A program made the position numbers and the translations under genes. From contig CAZKIP010000007.1 of NCBI GenBank assembly GCA_964552945.1, positions 745 to 64,744 of the forward strand: a DNA stretch of 64,000 nucleotides, in the 5' to 3' direction. Numbering within the stretch: the first letter of the stretch is position 1; each line of letters opens with the position of its first letter. Of this stretch, positions 14,249-58,248 are shown piece by piece. Source of the DNA: an uncultured Methanosarcinales archaeon. Its GTDB lineage: Archaea > Nanobdellota > Nanobdellia > Woesearchaeales > GW2011-AR9. The notes beneath the pieces are model-generated. The model searched no databases. It had not been told where the DNA came from and worked only from the letters and a program-made list of their open reading frames with translations.

Positions 14249-14578
14249 TTAACTTATTTTTAGAATTTTTTTAATTTTTTCAAAATTTGCTTTTATATCT
14301 GGTCCAAAATCCTCAATATTTAGTTTAGAAGCTTGCATTTCAGCCATAATTTTACGATATTTTTCAGGCCCTTTTTTGAGAACAAATGCATCAAGTTCTT
14401 TACTCCGATTTCCTTTAGAAGAGGCCATAGATAAATTCATCCTTAATTGGTTTATTTGTTTAGCGATAGCTGCAATTACGCTGTCACGATCTATCCTTTT
14501 TCCACCAGTTATTCTGGCCCATACACTGCTAATGCCCATTTTATTATAGAAATCGTTTGAATATAAATAAGTTTTCAA
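14249..14578 (-). CDS. Hypothetical 109-aa basic protein.
   Basis: ORF only. No motif recognised. Confidence 0.35.
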   Translation of the reverse strand: MKTYLYSNDFYNKMGISSVWARITGGKRIDRDSVIAAIAKQINQLRMNLSMASSKGNRSKELDAFVLKKGPEKYRKIMAEMQASKLNIEDFGPDIKANFEKIKKILKIS

Positions 14579-14586
14579 AAATTAGG

Positions 14587-14705
14587 CTTAATCCAAAATA
14601 ACACAATTTAGTATACTGGCGCCAATTGAGGCACACGGGGTCTCGTCAAAGAGCCCGTAATCGTGCCGTGCCCCAGTATACTAATGTCCTCTATTCTGGA
14701 TGAAG
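14587..14705. repeat. Copy 1 of a conserved GC-rich nested-hairpin element. Either a candidate structured ncRNA or a MITE-like palindromic repeat.
   Basis: Outer inverted repeat CTTAATCCAAAATA / TATTCTGGATGAAG. Inner stem GTATACTGG (14611-14619) / CCAGTATAC (14674-14682). The interior is GC-rich with GGCAC/GTGCC and ACGGG/CCCGT pairs. The element sits in the intergenic region 3' of the PNP gene. Confidence 0.5.
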
Positions 14706-14713
14706 CCCAAAAA

Positions 14714-15625
14714 TTATGGGTTCAGAACCCTTTCTCTGTAAAGTCTAAAGAAATTTGCTACAACCTTCTCAATTCTTTGTTTCACTAGAGGATCTTCTAA
14801 AACTGCGGTAACTTCGGCATGTGAAGTAGAGTTAGTACCATCCTCTTTTGTTGAGTTGGTTATTAAACTCATCCCAACACAATTCATGCCCCTATTTCTT
14901 GCAGCTTCCACTTCAGGGATAGTTGACATCCCCACTGCTTGTAATCCCATATTCCTGAAAGCAATAACTTGCGCTTTAGTTTCATAAGTAGGACCAATTA
15001 CCGCACCATAAGATCCTAGATGCATCTCTCCAGCTTTCATTAATAAAGCAGTTAATTGTTCATCATAAGCATCATGCATTGGAACAAATCGTTGTAAATT
15101 TTCTTGGTCAATAGTTTTAAAATCCATCATTCTTCCAGATAAAGGACAAGGAATACCCAAAGACATATGGCTTGATAAAGCCATTAATTCTCCTACCTTA
15201 TAACTTGTATCTAATCCTCCTGCAGCATTGGTTACAAAATAATTTGCCACACCTAAATTAGCCATTACATTGACTGCAAAAACGGTCTCTAAAATCCCTT
15301 GATTGAATGGTTTATCAACAACTTCATAAAAATGAGTCCTTCCTTGTAAACCAATAATTGGTACCCCTTCTAATTCTCCAAGGTGTAGATTACCAGCATG
15401 ACCTTTTACTGTAGGTACAGGAAATCTAGGAATTTCACTATAAGGAATTATTCTAGAATTATCTATTTTATCAGCCAATCCTCCCAATCCAGAACCTAGA
15501 GTTAAAGCAAATAAAGGCTTAAAATCACCCATCTGTTCTTTTAAGTATTGAGCTGCTTCATCAACATGAGCTTCATAATTACGTTGAAAATCCAATGCGT
15601 CAGTGAGAATTTTTAATGAGTCCAT
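14714..15625 (-). CDS. Purine nucleoside phosphorylase (trimeric PNP/MTAP family).
   Basis: The motifs GSGLGGL, VKGHAGNLHLGELEGVPIIGLQGRTHFYE and MSTIPEVEAAR match the PNP family-1 signatures. Confidence 0.8.
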   Translation of the reverse strand: MDSLKILTDALDFQRNYEAHVDEAAQYLKEQMGDFKPLFALTLGSGLGGLADKIDNSRIIPYSEIPRFPVPTVKGHAGNLHLGELEGVPIIGLQGRTHFYEVVDKPFNQGILETVFAVNVMANLGVANYFVTNAAGGLDTSYKVGELMALSSHMSLGIPCPLSGRMMDFKTIDQENLQRFVPMHDAYDEQLTALLMKAGEMHLGSYGAVIGPTYETKAQVIAFRNMGLQAVGMSTIPEVEAARNRGMNCVGMSLITNSTKEDGTNSTSHAEVTAVLEDPLVKQRIEKVVANFFRLYRERVLNP

Positions 15626-16038: not shown

Positions 16039-16416
16039 ATGAATAAGGAATTCTGGATTAAAGTTCTCTACATCATCCACATCCCAATAACAGTTTTTTG
16101 GTTTGGGCTATTTCTCATCCCAACTTATTTCTGGGCTGATAGAATGCTTTTTCAATTTTGGTACGCCATAGGACTTGTATCTATCCAATATCTGTGGGGG
16201 ATTCTTGTTTTTAGAAAATTTAGTTCAATCTGTCCTGTAACAACGATGATGCAACTTCTTCGAGGATATGATTTAAATGATGAAAGAAATTATAAACATG
16301 GTTTTATTGCTGAATTCATACAAGACTTAAACCTACCTCTGAAACCTAAACACACAGATTATTTACTTAAAACAACTTTTGTAGTAATAGTTCTTCAATA
16401 TATTTTTTTAGTTTAA
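16039..16416 (+). CDS. Small integral membrane protein (3-4 TM).
   Basis: Hydrophobic helices in a 125-aa ORF. Confidence 0.4.
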   Translation: MNKEFWIKVLYIIHIPITVFWFGLFLIPTYFWADRMLFQFWYAIGLVSIQYLWGILVFRKFSSICPVTTMMQLLRGYDLNDERNYKHGFIAEFIQDLNLPLKPKHTDYLLKTTFVVIVLQYIFLV

Positions 16417-16420
16417 TCGG

Positions 16421-16539
16421 GCTTCTTCCAGAATAACATACCTTTGTATACTGGCGCCCTGACGAAGTCGAGCCGATGAGCGAAGCTCATGATAACGGCG
16501 TGCTCCAGTATACAAATTCACTATATTCTGGATGAAGCA
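16421..16539. repeat. Copy 2 of the nested-hairpin element. It exactly fills the gap between two convergent genes.
   Basis: Outer inverted repeat CTTCTTCCAGAATA / TATTCTGGATGAAG. Inner stem GTATACTGG / CCAGTATAC. Internal pairs CGCC/GGCG. Apical stem ATGAGC-GAA-GCTCAT. About 54% GC in a roughly 33% GC genome. Confidence 0.55.
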
Positions 16540-16544
16540 GTTAA

Positions 16545-17228
16545 TCACATAAACACAGAAACTAAATTACCAATCAAATAACCTATAATTCCAGCCCCTA
16601 TACCAACTAAAACAATTTCTATCCCAGATTTAAACCAATTTCTTTTGGTGTAATAAGTCTTAGATAACCCCACCAAAAATAGAACTATTATTGTAAGAAC
16701 TATCGCATATGTAACCGCGGTCATTCCAGAAGAAAGAATGAACGGAGTAATTGGAAATGCCGACCCTACTAAAAAAGAAAGAAACATTGTAAAAGCATTT
16801 CTAAATGGAAGATCCAACTTCTTTTTTGATATTCCAACCTTTTTTCTAACAAGATAATTACAAATAAATTCGGGATGTTTCTTTCTTGAATGGTCCTTAA
16901 AAAGAGAACCAATCTCTTTTCTAGATAAACCTTCTTTTACCAAAATGCTTTTCATTTCACCAATACATTTTTGAGGATTTTTTTCAAGATACTTCCTTGT
17001 TGAGGTAATTTCCTGTTCATAAACTTCTCTCTGTGACTTAGCGGAAAGATAACTACCTGCAGACATTGAAAAAGCACCGGCAAACATACTTGCTAATCCA
17101 GCTAATACCACCATTAAATTGCTACCACCACCAACATAAACTCCCAAAACTAAACCAAGGTTAGAAACCAAACCATCCTCGATACCAAAAACAAAATCGC
17201 GCATCAATTCGCTTAGACCCCTAGTCAT
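16545..17228 (-). CDS. VIT1/CCC1-family iron/manganese transporter.
   Basis: N-terminal FGIEDGLVSNLGLVLGV motif and hydrophobic C-terminal TM helices typical of the VIT/DUF125 family. Confidence 0.7.
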   Translation of the reverse strand: MTRGLSELMRDFVFGIEDGLVSNLGLVLGVYVGGGSNLMVVLAGLASMFAGAFSMSAGSYLSAKSQREVYEQEITSTRKYLEKNPQKCIGEMKSILVKEGLSRKEIGSLFKDHSRKKHPEFICNYLVRKKVGISKKKLDLPFRNAFTMFLSFLVGSAFPITPFILSSGMTAVTYAIVLTIIVLFLVGLSKTYYTKRNWFKSGIEIVLVGIGAGIIGYLIGNLVSVFM

Positions 17229-52797: not shown

Positions 52798-53817
52798 ATG
52801 GTAATCAACGTAGCTATTAATGGGTTTGGTAGAATAGGAAGGATGGTTTTCCGTGTAGCAATGAAAGATAAAGCTATTAACATCGTTGCAGTAAACGATC
52901 TTACAGATAATAAAACATTGGCACATCTTCTAAAATATGATTCTGTTCATGGAATACTTCCAGACAAAGTAGGATTTACTAACGGCTATTTGTTAGTCGG
53001 TAAAAAAAAAATTCAAGTTTTATCAGAAAAAGATCCAACCAACATCCCTTGGAAAAAAATGAAGATAGATGTAGTTGTTGAAAGTACTGGTTTTTTTAGA
53101 GATCCTGTTAAGGCAGCTGCACATTTAACTTCCGGTGCAAAGAAGGTGATAATTTCAGCACCATGCAAATGTGAATCTGGAAAAATGTGTCCAGCAAACA
53201 CTTTGACAATTGTTCTTGGTGTAAACGAAAAAAGATACAATAAGAAAAAACATCACATCATAAGTAACGCTTCCTGTACAACCAATTGTGTTGCACCAAT
53301 AATGAAAGTTTTAGAAGAAAAGATTGGTGTGAAAAGATGTTTCTTTACAACAATTCATGGATATACAGCAGACCAACGTATAGTAGATGGTCCCCATAAA
53401 GATTTAAGAAGAGCTAGAGCTGCTGCAGTAAATGTAGTCCCTACTTCTACCGGTGCGGATATTGCAACTGTTGAAGCCATTCCTTCATTAATGGGGAAAA
53501 TCCGTGGTTCAGCTATTCGTGTGCCAATTCCTGATGGAAGTATAACAGATTTTACCATTGAAATGAAAAAGAGTGTAACCGTTGATCAGATTAATAAATT
53601 ATTCAAAAAGCACGCTGCTGGAAAGATGAAGGGCATCATTGAGTATTCTGAAAATGAGTTAGTTTCTTCGGACATTGTTGGCAACCCCCATTCATCCATC
53701 TTTGATTCAAAATTAACAAAAGTCGTGGATGGAAAATTTTTGAAGATTGTTTCTTGGTACGATAATGAGTGGGGATATTCTAAAAGAATGGTCGATTTAA
53801 TTAAGTATGTAAGTTAA
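52798..53817 (+). CDS. gap: Glyceraldehyde-3-phosphate dehydrogenase, class I (bacterial/eukaryotic type).
   Basis: NGFGRIGR, the active-site SNASCTTNC and the C-terminal WYDNEWGYS. These are class I signatures, not those of archaeal type II GAPDH. Confidence 0.9.
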   Translation: MVINVAINGFGRIGRMVFRVAMKDKAINIVAVNDLTDNKTLAHLLKYDSVHGILPDKVGFTNGYLLVGKKKIQVLSEKDPTNIPWKKMKIDVVVESTGFFRDPVKAAAHLTSGAKKVIISAPCKCESGKMCPANTLTIVLGVNEKRYNKKKHHIISNASCTTNCVAPIMKVLEEKIGVKRCFFTTIHGYTADQRIVDGPHKDLRRARAAAVNVVPTSTGADIATVEAIPSLMGKIRGSAIRVPIPDGSITDFTIEMKKSVTVDQINKLFKKHAAGKMKGIIEYSENELVSSDIVGNPHSSIFDSKLTKVVDGKFLKIVSWYDNEWGYSKRMVDLIKYVS

Positions 53818-53839: not shown

Positions 53840-55726
53840 TTAATCAAAATAAATTCTGATAATTCCTTTAACTTTCTGAACTCTTCTAACCATTTCTTTA
53901 AGATGTTCCAGATTTCTAGGGATTACTTTGAAAGAGCATTTAGCGTCAACACCAAGCAACTTAGCTTTCGCTTCCTTAACTTCAAATCCTGCTTGAGCAA
54001 TTGTATGTAAAAGGTCTGCTAAAAGACCACTTCTTTCTCCGGCTTCAACATGGAAAGAGATTCTTTGTGTGTAATTCTCTTTCCATTTAACCGGAATTAA
54101 CTTATCTTCTTTCTTTAAAGCTTCTTTACAATTATCTCTGTGAACAGAAATTATTCTTCTTTTTGTTATTAAACCAACAATGTTTTCTCCTGGCAAAGCT
54201 TGACAACATTTGGCCAAAGTACAAACTGCCCGAGGATATTCTTCAGATGAAACTAAGACTCCTTTTTCTTCTTTTACAACTGGTTTAAATAGACGGAAAT
54301 GGAAAGAAGGTAAATTTTCGTAATCTTTCAAAACTTTTCTTATTCTTTGTCTAGCTTTTGAAGATGAAACTATTTTAATCCAACTTCTTCTTGGTCTTTG
54401 TTTTTTATGAGTAATAATTTCTACAACGTCCCCATTCACAAGTTTATGTCTTAACGGAACAAATTTTCCATTAACCTTCCCTCCAACACATTTGCTTCCA
54501 ATTTCTTCATGAACTGCATAAGCAAAATCAAGAACTGTAGATTCAACAGGTAATTCTTTCAAATCTCCGAGAGGAGTATAACAATAAATTTTATCACCAA
54601 AAACATCTACTTGGACCGATTCCAAAAATTCATTATCTTTTTTCTTTAAATCAAGAACCTCTTTCATCCAAGCAATTTTTTTCTCAAATATTTTGTCAGA
54701 TTTGAAATCCTTATATCTCCAATGTGCAGCAATTCCTTCTTCAGCAAACTCCTCCATCTCTGGAGTCCTTATTTGAACTTCGATTACCCACCCATTGTTT
54801 AATTTAACTCCAGTATGCAATGATCGATAAAAATTAGGTTTTGGATTAGCGATGTAATCTTTCAATCTACCTTCAATTGGTTCAAACTTCTCATGTAACA
54901 ATCCTAAAAAAGTGTAACAATCTTTTTCGGTAGGAACAATTACCCTTATCCCTAACAAATCAAATAAATCATTTAACCTTTTCTTTTTACGAACTACTTT
55001 TTTGTAAATACTGTAGATATGTTTTGGTCTCCCTTTAATCTTTAAAAGATCTAATTTTCCCCTAGACATTTCCTTTAAAAGTTCAATGACCCTTTCTATT
55101 TTATGTTCTCTTTCTTCTCTTGTTTCTTCCAGGAACTCTTGTATTTCAACATGTTTTTTTGGATTGATAATATAAAAAGCACAATCTTCCAACTGGACTC
55201 TTATTCTTTCAACCCCTAACCTATAAGCAAGAGGTGCATATACTTCCAAAACTTCAGAAGCCAACCTTTCTCTTTCATCAGGAGGAAAAACATGGACAGA
55301 ATTTAAGTTATCTAATTTATTTGCCAATTTGATAAAAATAACTCTTAAATCATGCAAGGCTGTAACCATAATTCTTCTTAAGGCATCTCCAGGGACATTC
55401 ACATTGTTAATCTTAATATGTCTTAATGTATTGACCTCATTCAATAAAGAAACAATGTTCTTCCCAAATTTATCTTCTATCTCCTTTTCAGGAATTTTAT
55501 CCAATAAACCATGTAATAATCCTGCCAAAACAGTTTCTGGGTCTGCTTTATTTTCAACTAGAATTTTTCCAACACGAATATTATGTTCAGAAAATAAATC
55601 GCCAGCTAGACGTTTCTCCTTCCCCAACTGTTCTTCTACATAATTAACAGCCTTTTCAAAAAGAAGAAGGTCTTCTTCAGTATAACCCTTGCCTCTACAC
55701 AGCAAAAGAAAAGAATTTCCTTCCAT
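53840..55726 (-). CDS. Long RelA/SpoT-homolog (RSH) (p)ppGpp synthetase. The domain order is degenerate HD, synthetase, TGS, CC/ZFD, ACT.
   Basis: The synthetase motifs are GRPKHIYSIYKKV, DLLGIRVIV, YRSLHTGV and EVQIRT. The TGS is YCYTPLGDLKELPVESTVLDFAYAVH..GD. The zinc-finger domain is CTLAKCCQALPGENIVGLIT..ISVHRDNC. The C-terminal domain is ACT. In the HD motif position, LLHGLLDK has Asp replaced by Gly. Confidence 0.85.
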   Translation of the reverse strand: MEGNSFLLLCRGKGYTEEDLLLFEKAVNYVEEQLGKEKRLAGDLFSEHNIRVGKILVENKADPETVLAGLLHGLLDKIPEKEIEDKFGKNIVSLLNEVNTLRHIKINNVNVPGDALRRIMVTALHDLRVIFIKLANKLDNLNSVHVFPPDERERLASEVLEVYAPLAYRLGVERIRVQLEDCAFYIINPKKHVEIQEFLEETREEREHKIERVIELLKEMSRGKLDLLKIKGRPKHIYSIYKKVVRKKKRLNDLFDLLGIRVIVPTEKDCYTFLGLLHEKFEPIEGRLKDYIANPKPNFYRSLHTGVKLNNGWVIEVQIRTPEMEEFAEEGIAAHWRYKDFKSDKIFEKKIAWMKEVLDLKKKDNEFLESVQVDVFGDKIYCYTPLGDLKELPVESTVLDFAYAVHEEIGSKCVGGKVNGKFVPLRHKLVNGDVVEIITHKKQRPRRSWIKIVSSSKARQRIRKVLKDYENLPSFHFRLFKPVVKEEKGVLVSSEEYPRAVCTLAKCCQALPGENIVGLITKRRIISVHRDNCKEALKKEDKLIPVKWKENYTQRISFHVEAGERSGLLADLLHTIAQAGFEVKEAKAKLLGVDAKCSFKVIPRNLEHLKEMVRRVQKVKGIIRIYFD

Positions 55727-55789: not shown

Positions 55790-57028
55790 TTATCCCCATT
55801 TTTCGATTTTTAGAAGTCGATTGTATTTGGCAGTTCTTTCGCCTCTACAAGGTGCTCCAGCCTTAATTTGACCGGTTCCCAACGCAACAACCAAATCTGC
55901 AATGAACGTATCTGCAGTTTCCCCACTGCGATGTGAAACCATTACCTTCCACTTATTTTTTCTAGCCAATTCAGCAGCTTCAAGAGCTTCTGTTAAAGTT
56001 CCAATTTGATTTACTTTTAGCAACAAACAATTACAACTTTTTTCATTGATTGCTCTTATAATTCTAAGTGGATTTGTTACAGTTAAATCATCGCCAACAA
56101 TTTGTATTTTATTCTTTTTAATCCTTTTGGATTCTTTAGTTAACCTTGCAAAACTATCAAAATCACTTTGATCAAAAGGATCTTCGATAGAAATAATAGG
56201 GTACTTCTTAATCAATTTCAAATAGCGAGTTAATAATTTTTCTTTAGTAAGCTTTTTACCATCAACTACATATTTCCCTTTTGAATAAAATTCAGAAGCA
56301 GCACAATCCATGGCGATGTCAACTTTGTTTTTATAACCAGCTTTTTTTATTGCTTTGAGCAATAGTTTAAGAACTATTTCAGCCTTATGCATCTCTTCAG
56401 GAGCAAACCCCCCTTCATCACCCACATTAGTTGATCCTTTCCCATACTTCTTATCAATCTCTTTTTTCAGCTGATGATACACTTCACTTCCCGCACGTAA
56501 ATTATCTTTATATTTTCTCAGATTGGGAGAAATCATAAATTCTTGAAAACTCAAATTGTTATCTGCATGTTTCCCCCCATTGATAACATTAAAGAAAGGC
56601 CGAGGCAATTTTGTTTTAGTTTTTGTTAATTTATTAAGATATTTGAAAAGTTCAAGATTTTTTGAATTTGCAGCGGCTCTTGCACATGCTAAAGAAACAC
56701 CTAAGATTGCATTAGCCCCTAATTTAGATTTATTATTAGTCCCATCCAATTTAATCATCGCAAGATCAATTTCTTTCTGCTTAGAACAATCTTTACCTTT
56801 CAATAATTTGGCTATTTTTTGAACATTTCTGATAGCTTTCTGAACACCTTTCCCTTGATACCTTTTACCACCATCCCTTAACTCCACTGCTTCATATTTT
56901 CCCGTGCTAGCTCCGGAAGGGACAGCTGCGGTTCCAGAATAGTTTTTAGTAAAAACGGTGACTTCTATAGTAGGATTCCCTCTGGAATCCAAAATTTCTA
57001 TGGCCTTGATATTTTTTATTTTAGGCAT
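55790..57028 (-). CDS. eno: Enolase.
   Basis: IEILDSRGNPTIEV, SGASTGKYEA, and the enolase C-terminal barrel motifs are present. The size is 412 aa. Confidence 0.95.
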   Translation of the reverse strand: MPKIKNIKAIEILDSRGNPTIEVTVFTKNYSGTAAVPSGASTGKYEAVELRDGGKRYQGKGVQKAIRNVQKIAKLLKGKDCSKQKEIDLAMIKLDGTNNKSKLGANAILGVSLACARAAANSKNLELFKYLNKLTKTKTKLPRPFFNVINGGKHADNNLSFQEFMISPNLRKYKDNLRAGSEVYHQLKKEIDKKYGKGSTNVGDEGGFAPEEMHKAEIVLKLLLKAIKKAGYKNKVDIAMDCAASEFYSKGKYVVDGKKLTKEKLLTRYLKLIKKYPIISIEDPFDQSDFDSFARLTKESKRIKKNKIQIVGDDLTVTNPLRIIRAINEKSCNCLLLKVNQIGTLTEALEAAELARKNKWKVMVSHRSGETADTFIADLVVALGTGQIKAGAPCRGERTAKYNRLLKIEKWG

Positions 57029-57082
57029 CGCTAAAGATAAGAAAAGAATTATCCTTAATTAAAGTATTGCTTATTCAACCCC

Positions 57083-57189
57083 ATCCGGAATAACACTTTT
57101 TTGTATAATGTTGCCCTGACGTAGTCGAGCCGATGGGCGTAAGCCCATAATGACGGCGTGCACCAGTATACAAAAACATCCATTCCAGA
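57083..57189. repeat. Copy 3 of the nested-hairpin element.
   Basis: Outer repeat ATCCGGAATA / CATTCCAGAT. Inner stem GTATAATG.../CCAGTATAC. The apical stem is ATGGGC-GTAA-GCCCAT, a compensatory double change relative to copy 2. Confidence 0.55.
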
Positions 57190-57195
57190 TATTTC

Positions 57196-58248
57196 TTATT
57201 CTAAAAGTTTAAGCTTGGGTTTAGAGGTAGATTTAGGTTCAGCTGAGAAAGTTCCAATATCGTTCCTAAAATATTGTGTAGGGACGTACAAACCATCATC
57301 TGTAGTTCTGACCCAATCTTCTTCCAAAAGAAAATTGGCAATTTCTCTTCGTAAAGTTGCGTTCTCCACTATTTTGCTCAAATCTTGCTGCGCAACCCCT
57401 CTACTATCTCTAATTGCAGAATATAGTTTATCAACCTCCTCTTTAAAAGGCAATACAGCACAATTATTACAAACTGGAGCATAAACAATCCTCCCATCTT
57501 CCGCTTCTTCAATTCTTTTAGTTTTATCAAAATAAGGGGCAGAAACATATTTTCCAATAATATTGTTTCCTTTTTTATCATCAAAATCATAAAGAGACAT
57601 CTCACCTGCCAATTCTCCAATATCTGCCTCTTCAACAAAATCAAGAGACCATAATCTTTGAGAATGAGAAGCATCATCACCACAATTTTTTCCTCTAATA
57701 AGAGATTTGCAAACTGGATTCAATTGAATTGAACGTACGTAAGGAAAAATTGCTCTAACATGTCCAAAAGGACGATGTCTGAAATCATACTCTAACCCAG
57801 AAACTCCTAAAGTTATTCCCCTCTTTCTACACCAAGAGATAAATTGGATTGCTTCATTAGCTCCCTTTTCATCAAGGCAAAACAAATTAATTTCATCAAT
57901 CACTACAGCACTAATATCTCTATATTTCCAATGTTTTGCGCCGTCAATAACAATTCTTCCATTCTCTCCTTGATCTGCAATTTTTCTAGAATGAATTTTT
58001 TCCATTCTAAATTCTAAATCAGCAACAATTTCAGGAAAGCCCTGAACGGTTTTGGCAGGATATCCCTCCCTACCATCTACTACTAGTTGATTGACCCCAT
58101 CTCTAGTGTTAAAATGAGAATTATAAGCTACAAAATTTTTTCCGGCATGATGAAAAAGTTCAAGCATGGCAACAACAGCTTTAGTCTTACCCCCATTCAT
58201 AATAGAAAACCAGCCAAAAGATTTCCCTTTAAGATCTTCCACGCTCAT
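57196..58248 (-). CDS. tdk: Thymidine kinase with a roughly 140-aa C-terminal extension.
   Basis: The P-loop is FSIMNGGKTKA (TK-type Y/FSxMNxGKS/T). Walker B is VVIDEINLF. The LEYDFRHRPFG region aligns with the TK lasso. The zinc-ribbon cysteines are NPVCKSLIRGKNC and a later CNNC. The extension has no recognised family. Confidence 0.6.
   Translation of the reverse strand: MSVEDLKGKSFGWFSIMNGGKTKAVVAMLELFHHAGKNFVAYNSHFNTRDGVNQLVVDGREGYPAKTVQGFPEIVADLEFRMEKIHSRKIADQGENGRIVIDGAKHWKYRDISAVVIDEINLFCLDEKGANEAIQFISWCRKRGITLGVSGLEYDFRHRPFGHVRAIFPYVRSIQLNPVCKSLIRGKNCGDDASHSQRLWSLDFVEEADIGELAGEMSLYDFDDKKGNNIIGKYVSAPYFDKTKRIEEAEDGRIVYAPVCNNCAVLPFKEEVDKLYSAIRDSRGVAQQDLSKIVENATLRREIANFLLEEDWVRTTDDGLYVPTQYFRNDIGTFSAEPKSTSKPKLKLLE

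Follow-up and report, generated by a model that had tools for sequence, protein, structure and literature searches.

What is the hairpin element that recurs in this archaeal contig, and what keeps its helices paired? The window analysed here is a stretch of 64,000 nucleotides (positions 745 to 64,744 of contig CAZKIP010000007.1, assembly GCA_964552945.1). Its GC content is 33%, among the archaeal proteins that it encodes are GatD and a PAC2 proteasome chaperone, and a contig from a JGI metagenome matches it. It holds three copies of the element, all on the + strand and all intergenic. The first-pass annotation of the third copy (57083-57189) pointed to a compensated base pair between copies 2 and 3 and took it as a sign of selection on structure, in RNA or in cruciform DNA, rather than on primary sequence. 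This change is one case of a family-wide maintenance of the hairpin. [quoted passage not shown] The reading that we favour, with moderate confidence, is that of a MITE with an IS5-type partner and a core maintained by pairing, which folds on the + strand, most likely as RNA.

The compensated pair itself is real. The apical stems read as they had been given, ATGAGC (16476-16481)-GAA-GCTCAT (16485-16490) in copy 2 and ATGGGC (57133-57138)-GTAA-GCCCAT (57143-57148) in copy 3, and the A16479-T16487 pair of the former is replaced by G57136-C57145 in the latter. Taken alone, one compensated pair is weak evidence and only suggestive, the two copies being 74% identical; it is the family-wide test that decides. 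About 60 related copies were gathered from Woesearchaeota and Nanoarchaeota metagenome-assembled genomes (MAGs) and from metagenomes, with search patterns that fixed one or both strands of the basal helix P1 and required an intact core. A pattern scan of species-representative genomes gave 33 loci from about 14 MAGs, most of which bear a Woesearchaeota or Nanoarchaeota label, and a metagenome scan with the terminal repeat, the spacer and TTTGTATACTGG gave 40 loci with the element. Overall there are more than 60 loci, with up to 5-6 copies per MAG.

Between the arms of the element lies a core of about 70 nt that folds as one long hairpin, with the same fold in every copy folded. Helix P1 (GTATACTGG/CCAGTATAC) leads into a 5′ junction composed of CGCC, four variable nucleotides or a small hairpin (or a larger insertion) and GAG. 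Above the junction stands P2, usually GGCGC/GCGCC, with the variable helix P3 stacked directly on it. The 3′ side carries a bulge of 4-5 nt in every copy folded, followed by the 3′ junction GUGCy. The P1 box and the junction nucleotides (CGCC...GAG and CC-GUGC) are almost invariant.

Covariation was tested on 42 distinct cores in a MAFFT alignment that had not been fitted to the structure, with shuffle controls that ignore phylogeny. The paired changes correlate family-wide: 93.4% of cells are paired compared to 80.8% in the shuffles, and the covariation score is 0.325 compared to 0.105, a value that none of 500 shuffles reached. Sliding the registers by 1-3 columns lowers pairing to 30-56%. 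Double changes occur at four of the five P2 pairs, which are 99% paired, and at all eight pairs of P3. There are 8 sequence types for P2 and about 19 for P3, nearly all of them fully paired. The optional mini-hairpin in the 5′ junction also covaries (GAC/GUC, GAU/AUC, GGC/GCC). Within the junction, a CGC/GUG register with a fixed G·U leaves 99.2% of cells paired, and C-to-U changes there yield U·G; the alternative GC/GC register, which includes a C·Y, was rejected at only 65.9%. A covariance model built on the cores gives 50-95 bits for sense copies and 17-33 bits for the antisense. The covariation of P2 and P3 across some 40 independent cores thus supports selection on their pairing, and presumably only copies with an intact hairpin would keep proliferating or persisting.

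The claim of selection on structure is upheld as far as pairing is concerned, while its rider "rather than on primary sequence" has to be dropped in view of the nearly invariant P1 box and junction. Two of the helices drawn for copy 3 also need correction. The terminal GTATAC/GTATAC pairing, described as retained, is not intact, since GTATAATGT (57103-57111) faces CCAGTATAC (57163-57171) with two mismatches. The internal CGCC/GGCG helix is not supported by the family: copy 3 has TGCC at this position and GGCG is missing in most copies. The helix that is conserved in copy 3 is instead GCCG (57129-57132) with CGGC (57154-57157), the counterpart of P2 in most relatives.

The ends of the element and its distribution class it as a MITE, a non-autonomous DNA transposon of about 120 nt in DPANN/Woesearchaeota archaea. 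It is short and devoid of coding capacity, it occurs in dispersed copies, and it has terminal inverted repeats, a target-site duplication of fixed length and ends in common with an IS. The terminal inverted repeats, GGyCTGTCCrGAAT...ATTCyGGACAGrCC, are present in most copies and decayed in copy 3 and a few MAG copies. Directly outside the repeats we find 9-bp target-site duplications that are specific for each copy, such as TAAACTATC, CTTAAAAAC and TATTACCGC. They are perfect (9/9) in 24 of 51 elements and match at 8/9 in another 16. When left flanks were compared with the right flanks of other elements, 8/9 matches occurred in 1.3% and 9/9 never. The genomic positions differ among copies, and bursts of identical copies are found inside single genomes. 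The two arms differ systematically, AATAA[AC] being present in 18 of 37 on the left and in none of 37 on the right. No empty orthologous insertion site was recovered, and our literature searches found no description of this MITE family in DPANN archaea.

Three loci (L003:4528-4605, L025:4501-4578 and L034:7891-7968) have a perfectly intact core between arms without recognisable terminal repeats or target duplication. Their cores may have been kept after immobilisation, or this may be an ascertainment effect of search patterns that demand an intact core. The title "uncultured Methanosarcinales archaeon" is carried by several of the MAG records with the element (L003, L014, L025, L033, L034 and further "binchicken" or SRP loci). 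To judge by the Woesearchaeota-type element that they share and by their AT-rich surroundings, such titles are probably unreliable.

A candidate for the enzyme that moves the MITE came from the same metagenome scan, the terminal-repeat-plus-box pattern being the only way in which the partner IS was reached; a tblastn search with the IS903B transposase against the MAG loci first collected gave no match. Besides the MITE loci, the scan returned four contigs with a MITE-type left end but a different continuation. One of them, L070, contains a whole IS of about 963 bp with GGCTCTGTCC termini. Its left end, GGCTCTGTCCGGAAAAGAATAAATTTGTATACTGG, is arranged as GGCTCTGTCCGGAA...TTTGTATACTGG followed by an open reading frame (ORF) of 310 amino acids from nt 55, and its right end is ...TTCCGGACAGAGCC. 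The ORF matches Pfam DDE_Tnp_1 (PF01609) above the cut-off (E 1.9e-14), with a visible Y-x2-R-x3-E-x6-K motif. Its best NCBIfam model is NF033579 (IS5_2, "IS5 family transposase"; E 1.2e-31), at 110 bits and thus below the curated cut-off of 140 bits. Homologues of the protein number 805, most of them on contigs about 1 kb long, and one is named as a Woesearchaeota transposase. Four more IS copies (L080-L083) have a left end of the same design, with the terminal repeat, an A-rich spacer and GTATACTGG 21-28 nt before the ATG, and a right end that consists of the terminal repeat only; the duplication of L083 is 8-9 bp. The left arm of the MITE equals the left end of the IS as far as the GTATACTGG box. 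The right-side CCAGTATAC is not IS-derived, and the hairpin core is missing from the five IS copies examined. Judged by these features, the partner probably belongs to the IS5 family, with a design like that of IS903 and a predicted DDE transposase, which presumably moves the MITE in trans.

IS903-group MITEs (IS5 family, with an IS of about 1 kb, GGC... termini and 9-bp duplications) are likewise small and ORF-less, with terminal inverted repeats and 9-bp duplications. The terminus of the present family, GGCTCTGTCCAGAATAAC, resembles the IS903 end GGCTTTGTTGAATAAATC, which we verified in plasmid records. The best NCBIfam model of IS903B is NF033579 as well, but at 356 bits, and a pairwise BLASTP of the L070 transposase against IS903B gave no significant match. 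In contrast to known IS5-derived MITEs, the host is a DPANN archaeon and the interior is a conserved, covarying hairpin and not a simple deletion remnant. A second MITE was seen at L005:1145-1307, with termini GGCTCTGTCC...GGACAGAGCC, a perfect 9-bp duplication (GTATGTGAC) and a different interior of about 160 nt that folds strongly (P1 GTGGTC/GACCAC, minimum free energy -59.7 kcal/mol). One transposase system thus appears to carry more than one cargo.

Which molecule folds had been left open between RNA and a DNA cruciform, and this choice can be narrowed. On the + strand, cells in structure pairs include 19 G·U and 3 A·C, one of the latter being an alignment artefact. Counted as independent events, there are roughly 14 G·U and 2 A·C, and 7 and 1 in P2 and P3 alone, neither strand of which was constrained by the search patterns. 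Since both C-to-U and A-to-G changes feed the G·U excess, a deamination bias alone is insufficient to explain it. The terminal-repeat arms have about 14 G·U and 9 A·C, i.e. no bias, as expected for a double-stranded protein-binding site. The imbalance in the core suggests that one strand folds, the + strand of the window, and tells against both a symmetric cruciform and simple palindrome correction, while RNA and single-stranded DNA are not separated by it. Relative to shuffled sequences, the window copies fold on this strand with z = -4.4 to -7.9. The folding molecule is most likely an RNA made across the element. Such a + strand RNA would work as a small RNA or in cis; it might, for instance, stabilise or process transcripts or be recognised by a protein.

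A number of observations weigh against RNA as the folding molecule. The orientation of the element to neighbouring genes is random (11 opposite and 7 same in co-directional surroundings, 12 divergent, 3 convergent), so that host read-through cannot account for a + strand RNA. When scored with a promoter weight matrix derived from the genes of this window (training median 7.4), the inward-facing sites in the arms reach weak scores of 1.4-2.8, and no convincing internal promoter was detected upstream of P1. The G·U excess amounts to about a dozen events, the P1 part of which is to some extent confounded by base composition and search patterns, and G·T wobbles are tolerated in folded single-stranded DNA as well. 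The invariance of P1 and the junction could reflect protein binding at the DNA level. In at least one IS copy, the GTATAC box sits at the TATA-box position of the transposase promoter.

Part of this evidence would fit a hairpin that acts at the DNA level. It could be a cruciform or single-stranded DNA hinge that allows the terminal repeats of a ~120-bp element to meet in a synaptic complex, or an attC-like folded-DNA recognition site. Recent bursts within a genome have identical cores and paired changes appear between subfamilies, a pattern compatible with selection on the ability to transpose. An orientation independent of host genes and the lack of a clear promoter by the weight matrix also agree with such a role, and the G·T wobble is the least destabilising mismatch in DNA too. 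However, a cruciform folds both strands, and a G·T on one of them is an A·C on the other, so that neither the 19:3 bias nor the fixed G·U is expected. IS5/IS903-type DDE transposases are established to act on double-stranded ends. Integron attC sites do resemble the element in conserving structure over sequence, in their variable terminal hairpin and extrahelical bases and in strand-specific folding. Yet the alignments lack the R''/R' signature boxes (RYYYAAC/GTTRRRY), there are no cassette arrays and no integrase context, and the copies are solitary and flanked by terminal repeats and duplications; an attC identity was rejected on these grounds. A DNA-level function of the hairpin seems to us unlikely.

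The promoter-like character of the P1 box opens another possibility. Upstream of about 40-55 window genes there is a sharp promoter at a fixed distance, A-rich at -35..-32 and with TTTWWAAA at -30..-23, which implies that most mRNAs of this genome are leaderless. In the L070 IS, AAATTTGTATA occupies positions -34..-24 from the transposase ATG, exactly that of the window-gene promoters, with the +1 of the matrix at the A of the ATG, and the P1 box may be part of the transposase promoter. Outward-reading CCAGTATACAAAA sites have moderate scores of 4.4-4.6 (99th percentile). In copy 3, the mutated 5′ strand of P1 becomes GCAACATTATACAAAAAA on the minus strand (57079-57111), with a score of 8.0 that exceeds the training median and lies at the 99.9th percentile. 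Its predicted start lies at the edge of the element, about 50 nt upstream of the ATG of the enolase gene, and the site may serve enolase as a co-opted, outward-facing promoter. It could thus be argued that the core is conserved as a mobile promoter unit. GTATAC and its T/A-rich flanks would then be a TATA box taken from the transposase promoter and present in both arms, the invariance of P1 would reflect binding of TBP/TFB or of the transposase, and P2 and P3 would merely be 5′ structure of short RNAs. The L070 and outward sites fit this view, as does the AATAA[AC] difference between left and right arms. The inward sites of the MITE arms nevertheless score poorly, and the variable distance between GTATAC and ATG among IS copies (21-28 nt) is ill-suited to a TATA box with fixed spacing. 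Moreover, GAG is conserved even though, in variants, its distance to the box shifts by anything from 7 to over 60 nt, and transcripts from the arm promoters would lack the 5′ strand of P1 and possibly that of P2. We regard a mobile promoter as quite improbable as the reason for conservation of the core.

It is very improbable that the structure is not selected at all and that pairing arose by chance or by palindrome correction (intrastrand template switching or gene conversion), with covariation reflecting the shared ancestry of palindromic subfamilies. Such an origin would sit well with a starting point of two copies and one compensated pair, with the uncompensated P1 mismatches and decayed terminal repeats of copy 3, and with shuffle controls blind to phylogeny. 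It does not explain why the many stem types of P2 and P3 are nearly all paired, why pairing is lost in slid registers, or why the same junction is found with different P1 helices around it. Conserved bulges and a conserved junction make the core asymmetric, and hence not a simple palindrome; template switching would also erase G·U pairs and give no strand bias. A host-encoded family of structured non-coding RNA genes unrelated to transposition (guide RNA, riboswitch-like RNA or ribozyme) might account for GC-rich, strongly folding islands amid 33%-GC intergenic DNA, for a conserved junction with variable helices and for the few intact cores between unrecognisable terminal repeats (L003, L025, L034), but it is largely refuted by the target-site duplications and the terminal repeats shared with the IS, conflicts with the variable genomic positions and within-genome bursts of identical copies, has no Rfam family even at E<=10 and on inspection lacks the signatures of kink-turns, bulge-helix-bulge motifs and hammerheads, and can hardly be correct.

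To return to the MITE with its selected core, a few variants, found with the covariance model and a motif scan, combine an unchanged junction and P2/P3 plan with other P1 helices. In L076, P1 is GTGGCCAA/TTGGCCAC and the arms have a different inverted repeat (GAAATTAATATT...); in L003, P1 is GTAGAAAGTCAGCTT/AAGCAGACTTTCTAC. At L006:1024-1164 and L041:4671-4790, a complete core with P1 GTGAGCAG/CTGCTCAC lies inverted at the P3 position of an outer, GTATAC-type element. These cases show that P1 can be replaced. In the "Russian-doll" arrangement of L006, the GAG/GUGC junction is lost in the outer element and kept in the inner one. In other variants, hairpins are inserted into P3 or the 5′ junction, or there is an unrelated MITE nested in them. 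An unrelated small palindromic element of about 120 nt (GAGAAGTTTG...CAAACTTCTC) interrupts P3 of one MITE copy at L068:934-1168. As its sequence recurs next to a second copy, in the right flank of L040, it is probably a further MITE family of the same organisms.

With at least four P1 helices, at least one different terminal repeat and a nested, inverted occurrence within the P3 of another copy, the core (GAG-P2-bulge-P3-GUGC) might even be a structured RNA module that unrelated MITE backbones have taken up repeatedly. This would make it a mobile small-RNA gene of DPANN archaea, similar to a short interspersed nuclear element, an idea that we put forward tentatively and consider rather doubtful. 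The TATA-like box that came from the transposase promoter would possibly drive such a module. For its RNA, a role in regulating transposition or nearby genes is conceivable, or binding to a protein of the host or of the transposon.

Several known repeat families invite comparison. Correia elements of Neisseria, ERIC of enterobacteria and REP/BIME are intergenic, multi-copy and hairpin-forming, often at gene ends, and able to alter transcripts. The present element resembles them in being intergenic, multi-copy and hairpin-forming. Correia elements duplicate TA and contain an IHF site, and REP/BIME are without terminal repeats or duplications and are moved by RAYT (HUH) enzymes. None of them is known to have the sequence or junction motifs described here, and membership in REP/BIME was rejected on its defining features. 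The closest functional precedent is bcr1 of the Bacillus cereus group, described as a MITE-like repeat of ~155 bp whose RNA structure is kept by compensatory changes (Klevan et al. 2007, as summarised in PMC3184786). Going by that summary, both are non-autonomous mobile repeats with short flanking direct repeats and compensatory changes. As summarised there, bcr1 is bacterial, unrelated in sequence and flanked by 5-bp direct repeats, and its transcription has been demonstrated, whereas the archaeal MITE has a 9-bp duplication and a presumed transcript.

Other identities were tried and rejected. The window gave no Rfam match at gathering thresholds, and at E<=10 the window copies and a consensus-type copy gave only generic microRNA-hairpin matches or nothing. 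A kink-turn of the L7Ae-binding type, which has tandem sheared G·A/A·G pairs after a 3-nt bulge, can be discarded: in alignment A3, GA lies opposite GU, position 1n is U and not A, and the bulge is at least 5 nt. The archaeal bulge-helix-bulge motif requires two 3-nt bulges, one on each strand, and a 4-bp helix between them, whereas the bulges here are 2 nt and at least 7 nt, with 3 bp (CGC/GUG) in between. For a hammerhead, CUGAYGA is found only in mini-hairpin variants and there inside the hairpin, with no GAAA core and no Rfam match. H/ACA and C/D box RNAs fail on their defining features. Some copies have a Shine–Dalgarno-like GGAGG followed by AUG, but a small ORF was rejected since the AUG is not conserved and variation in P3 preserves pairing and is not synonymous. 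An intrinsic terminator was rejected as well, P1 having a U run before and an A run after it on both strands, and therefore no U tail on either. In viral contigs, a first core pattern gave four chance matches only. A second gave at least 120 matches, with no covariance-model match among the 80 loci returned, and the model, which is specific, found nothing in 717 kb of viral contigs matching a loose core pattern. The element is thus not evidently viral.

The window copies are 116-123 nt long and overlapped only by spurious ORFs. Copy 3 in full spans 57079-57194, enclosing the interval first noted, within a 167-nt gap between the minus-strand enolase gene (55790-57028) and a thymidine-kinase-like gene (57196-58248). 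Its left target-site duplication CTTATTCAA (57070-57078) has 8/9 identity with the right one, CTTATTCTA (57195-57203). The left arm (57079-57102) consists of a decayed terminal inverted repeat, CCCCATCCGGAAT, and the spacer AACACTTTTTT, and aligns to the family sequence GGyCTGTCCrGAATAACAyCATTTT. After the 5′ strand of P1, the 5′ junction (57112-57128) comprises TGCC, the optional mini-hairpin CTGAC-GTA-GTC (P1a) and a conserved GA, where the family has yGCC-N4/hairpin-GAG. The P2 5′ strand and the P3 hairpin (57133-57148) follow. On the 3′ side, a bulge AATGA (57149-57153; AAUC, AAUU and UUAU in the family) precedes the P2 3′ strand with the conserved 3′ junction GTGCA (together 57154-57162), and CCGTGC is invariant in alignment A3. 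Beyond the P1 3′ strand, the right arm (57172-57194) has a decayed terminal inverted repeat, ATTCCAGATATTT.

Copy 2 extends from 16420 to 16538 on the + strand (60.7 bits), with P1 at 16446-16454/16505-16513, P2 at 16472-16475/16496-16499 and P3 at 16476-16490, between degenerate duplications of 6/9 identity (16411-16419 and 16539-16547). Copy 1, also on the + strand, extends from 14585 to 14707 (86.4 bits), with P1 at 14611-14619/14673-14681, P2 at 14630-14634/14663-14667 and P3 at 14635-14658, between perfect 9-bp duplications CAAAAATTA (14576-14584 and 14708-14716). In all three, the right-hand duplication includes the stop codon of the adjoining minus-strand gene: 14714-14716 (in 14708-14716), 16545-16547 (in 16539-16547) and 57196-57198 (in 57195-57203), the last being that of the thymidine-kinase-like gene. 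The insertions are thus exactly at gene 3′ ends, with the stop preserved by the duplication, and copies at stop codons could reshape transcript ends or antisense transcription.

For DPANN archaea, whose mobile DNA is poorly described, the family amounts to a defined MITE together with an IS5-type partner. In addition, it is a clean natural case of a selfish element whose internal hairpin is kept, on one strand, by compensatory evolution. Should the molecule that folds be RNA, a structured RNA, perhaps with promoter-like boxes, is scattered beside genes in very compact genomes. For annotation, recognition of the family keeps such GC-rich hairpins from being called novel host non-coding RNA genes.

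Two other features of the window may be recorded. A full-length RelA/SpoT homologue with HD_4, RelA_SpoT, TGS and ACT domains is encoded at 53840-55726 on the minus strand of this apparently DPANN-type contig; full-length homologues of this kind are unusual in archaea. Positions 5-1120 of the window, at the start of a 661-amino-acid ORF (186-2171), hold four coding repeats in tandem, each about 300 nt long (219-nt core, 64-70% identity), and a fifth related stretch is found at 53525-53559.

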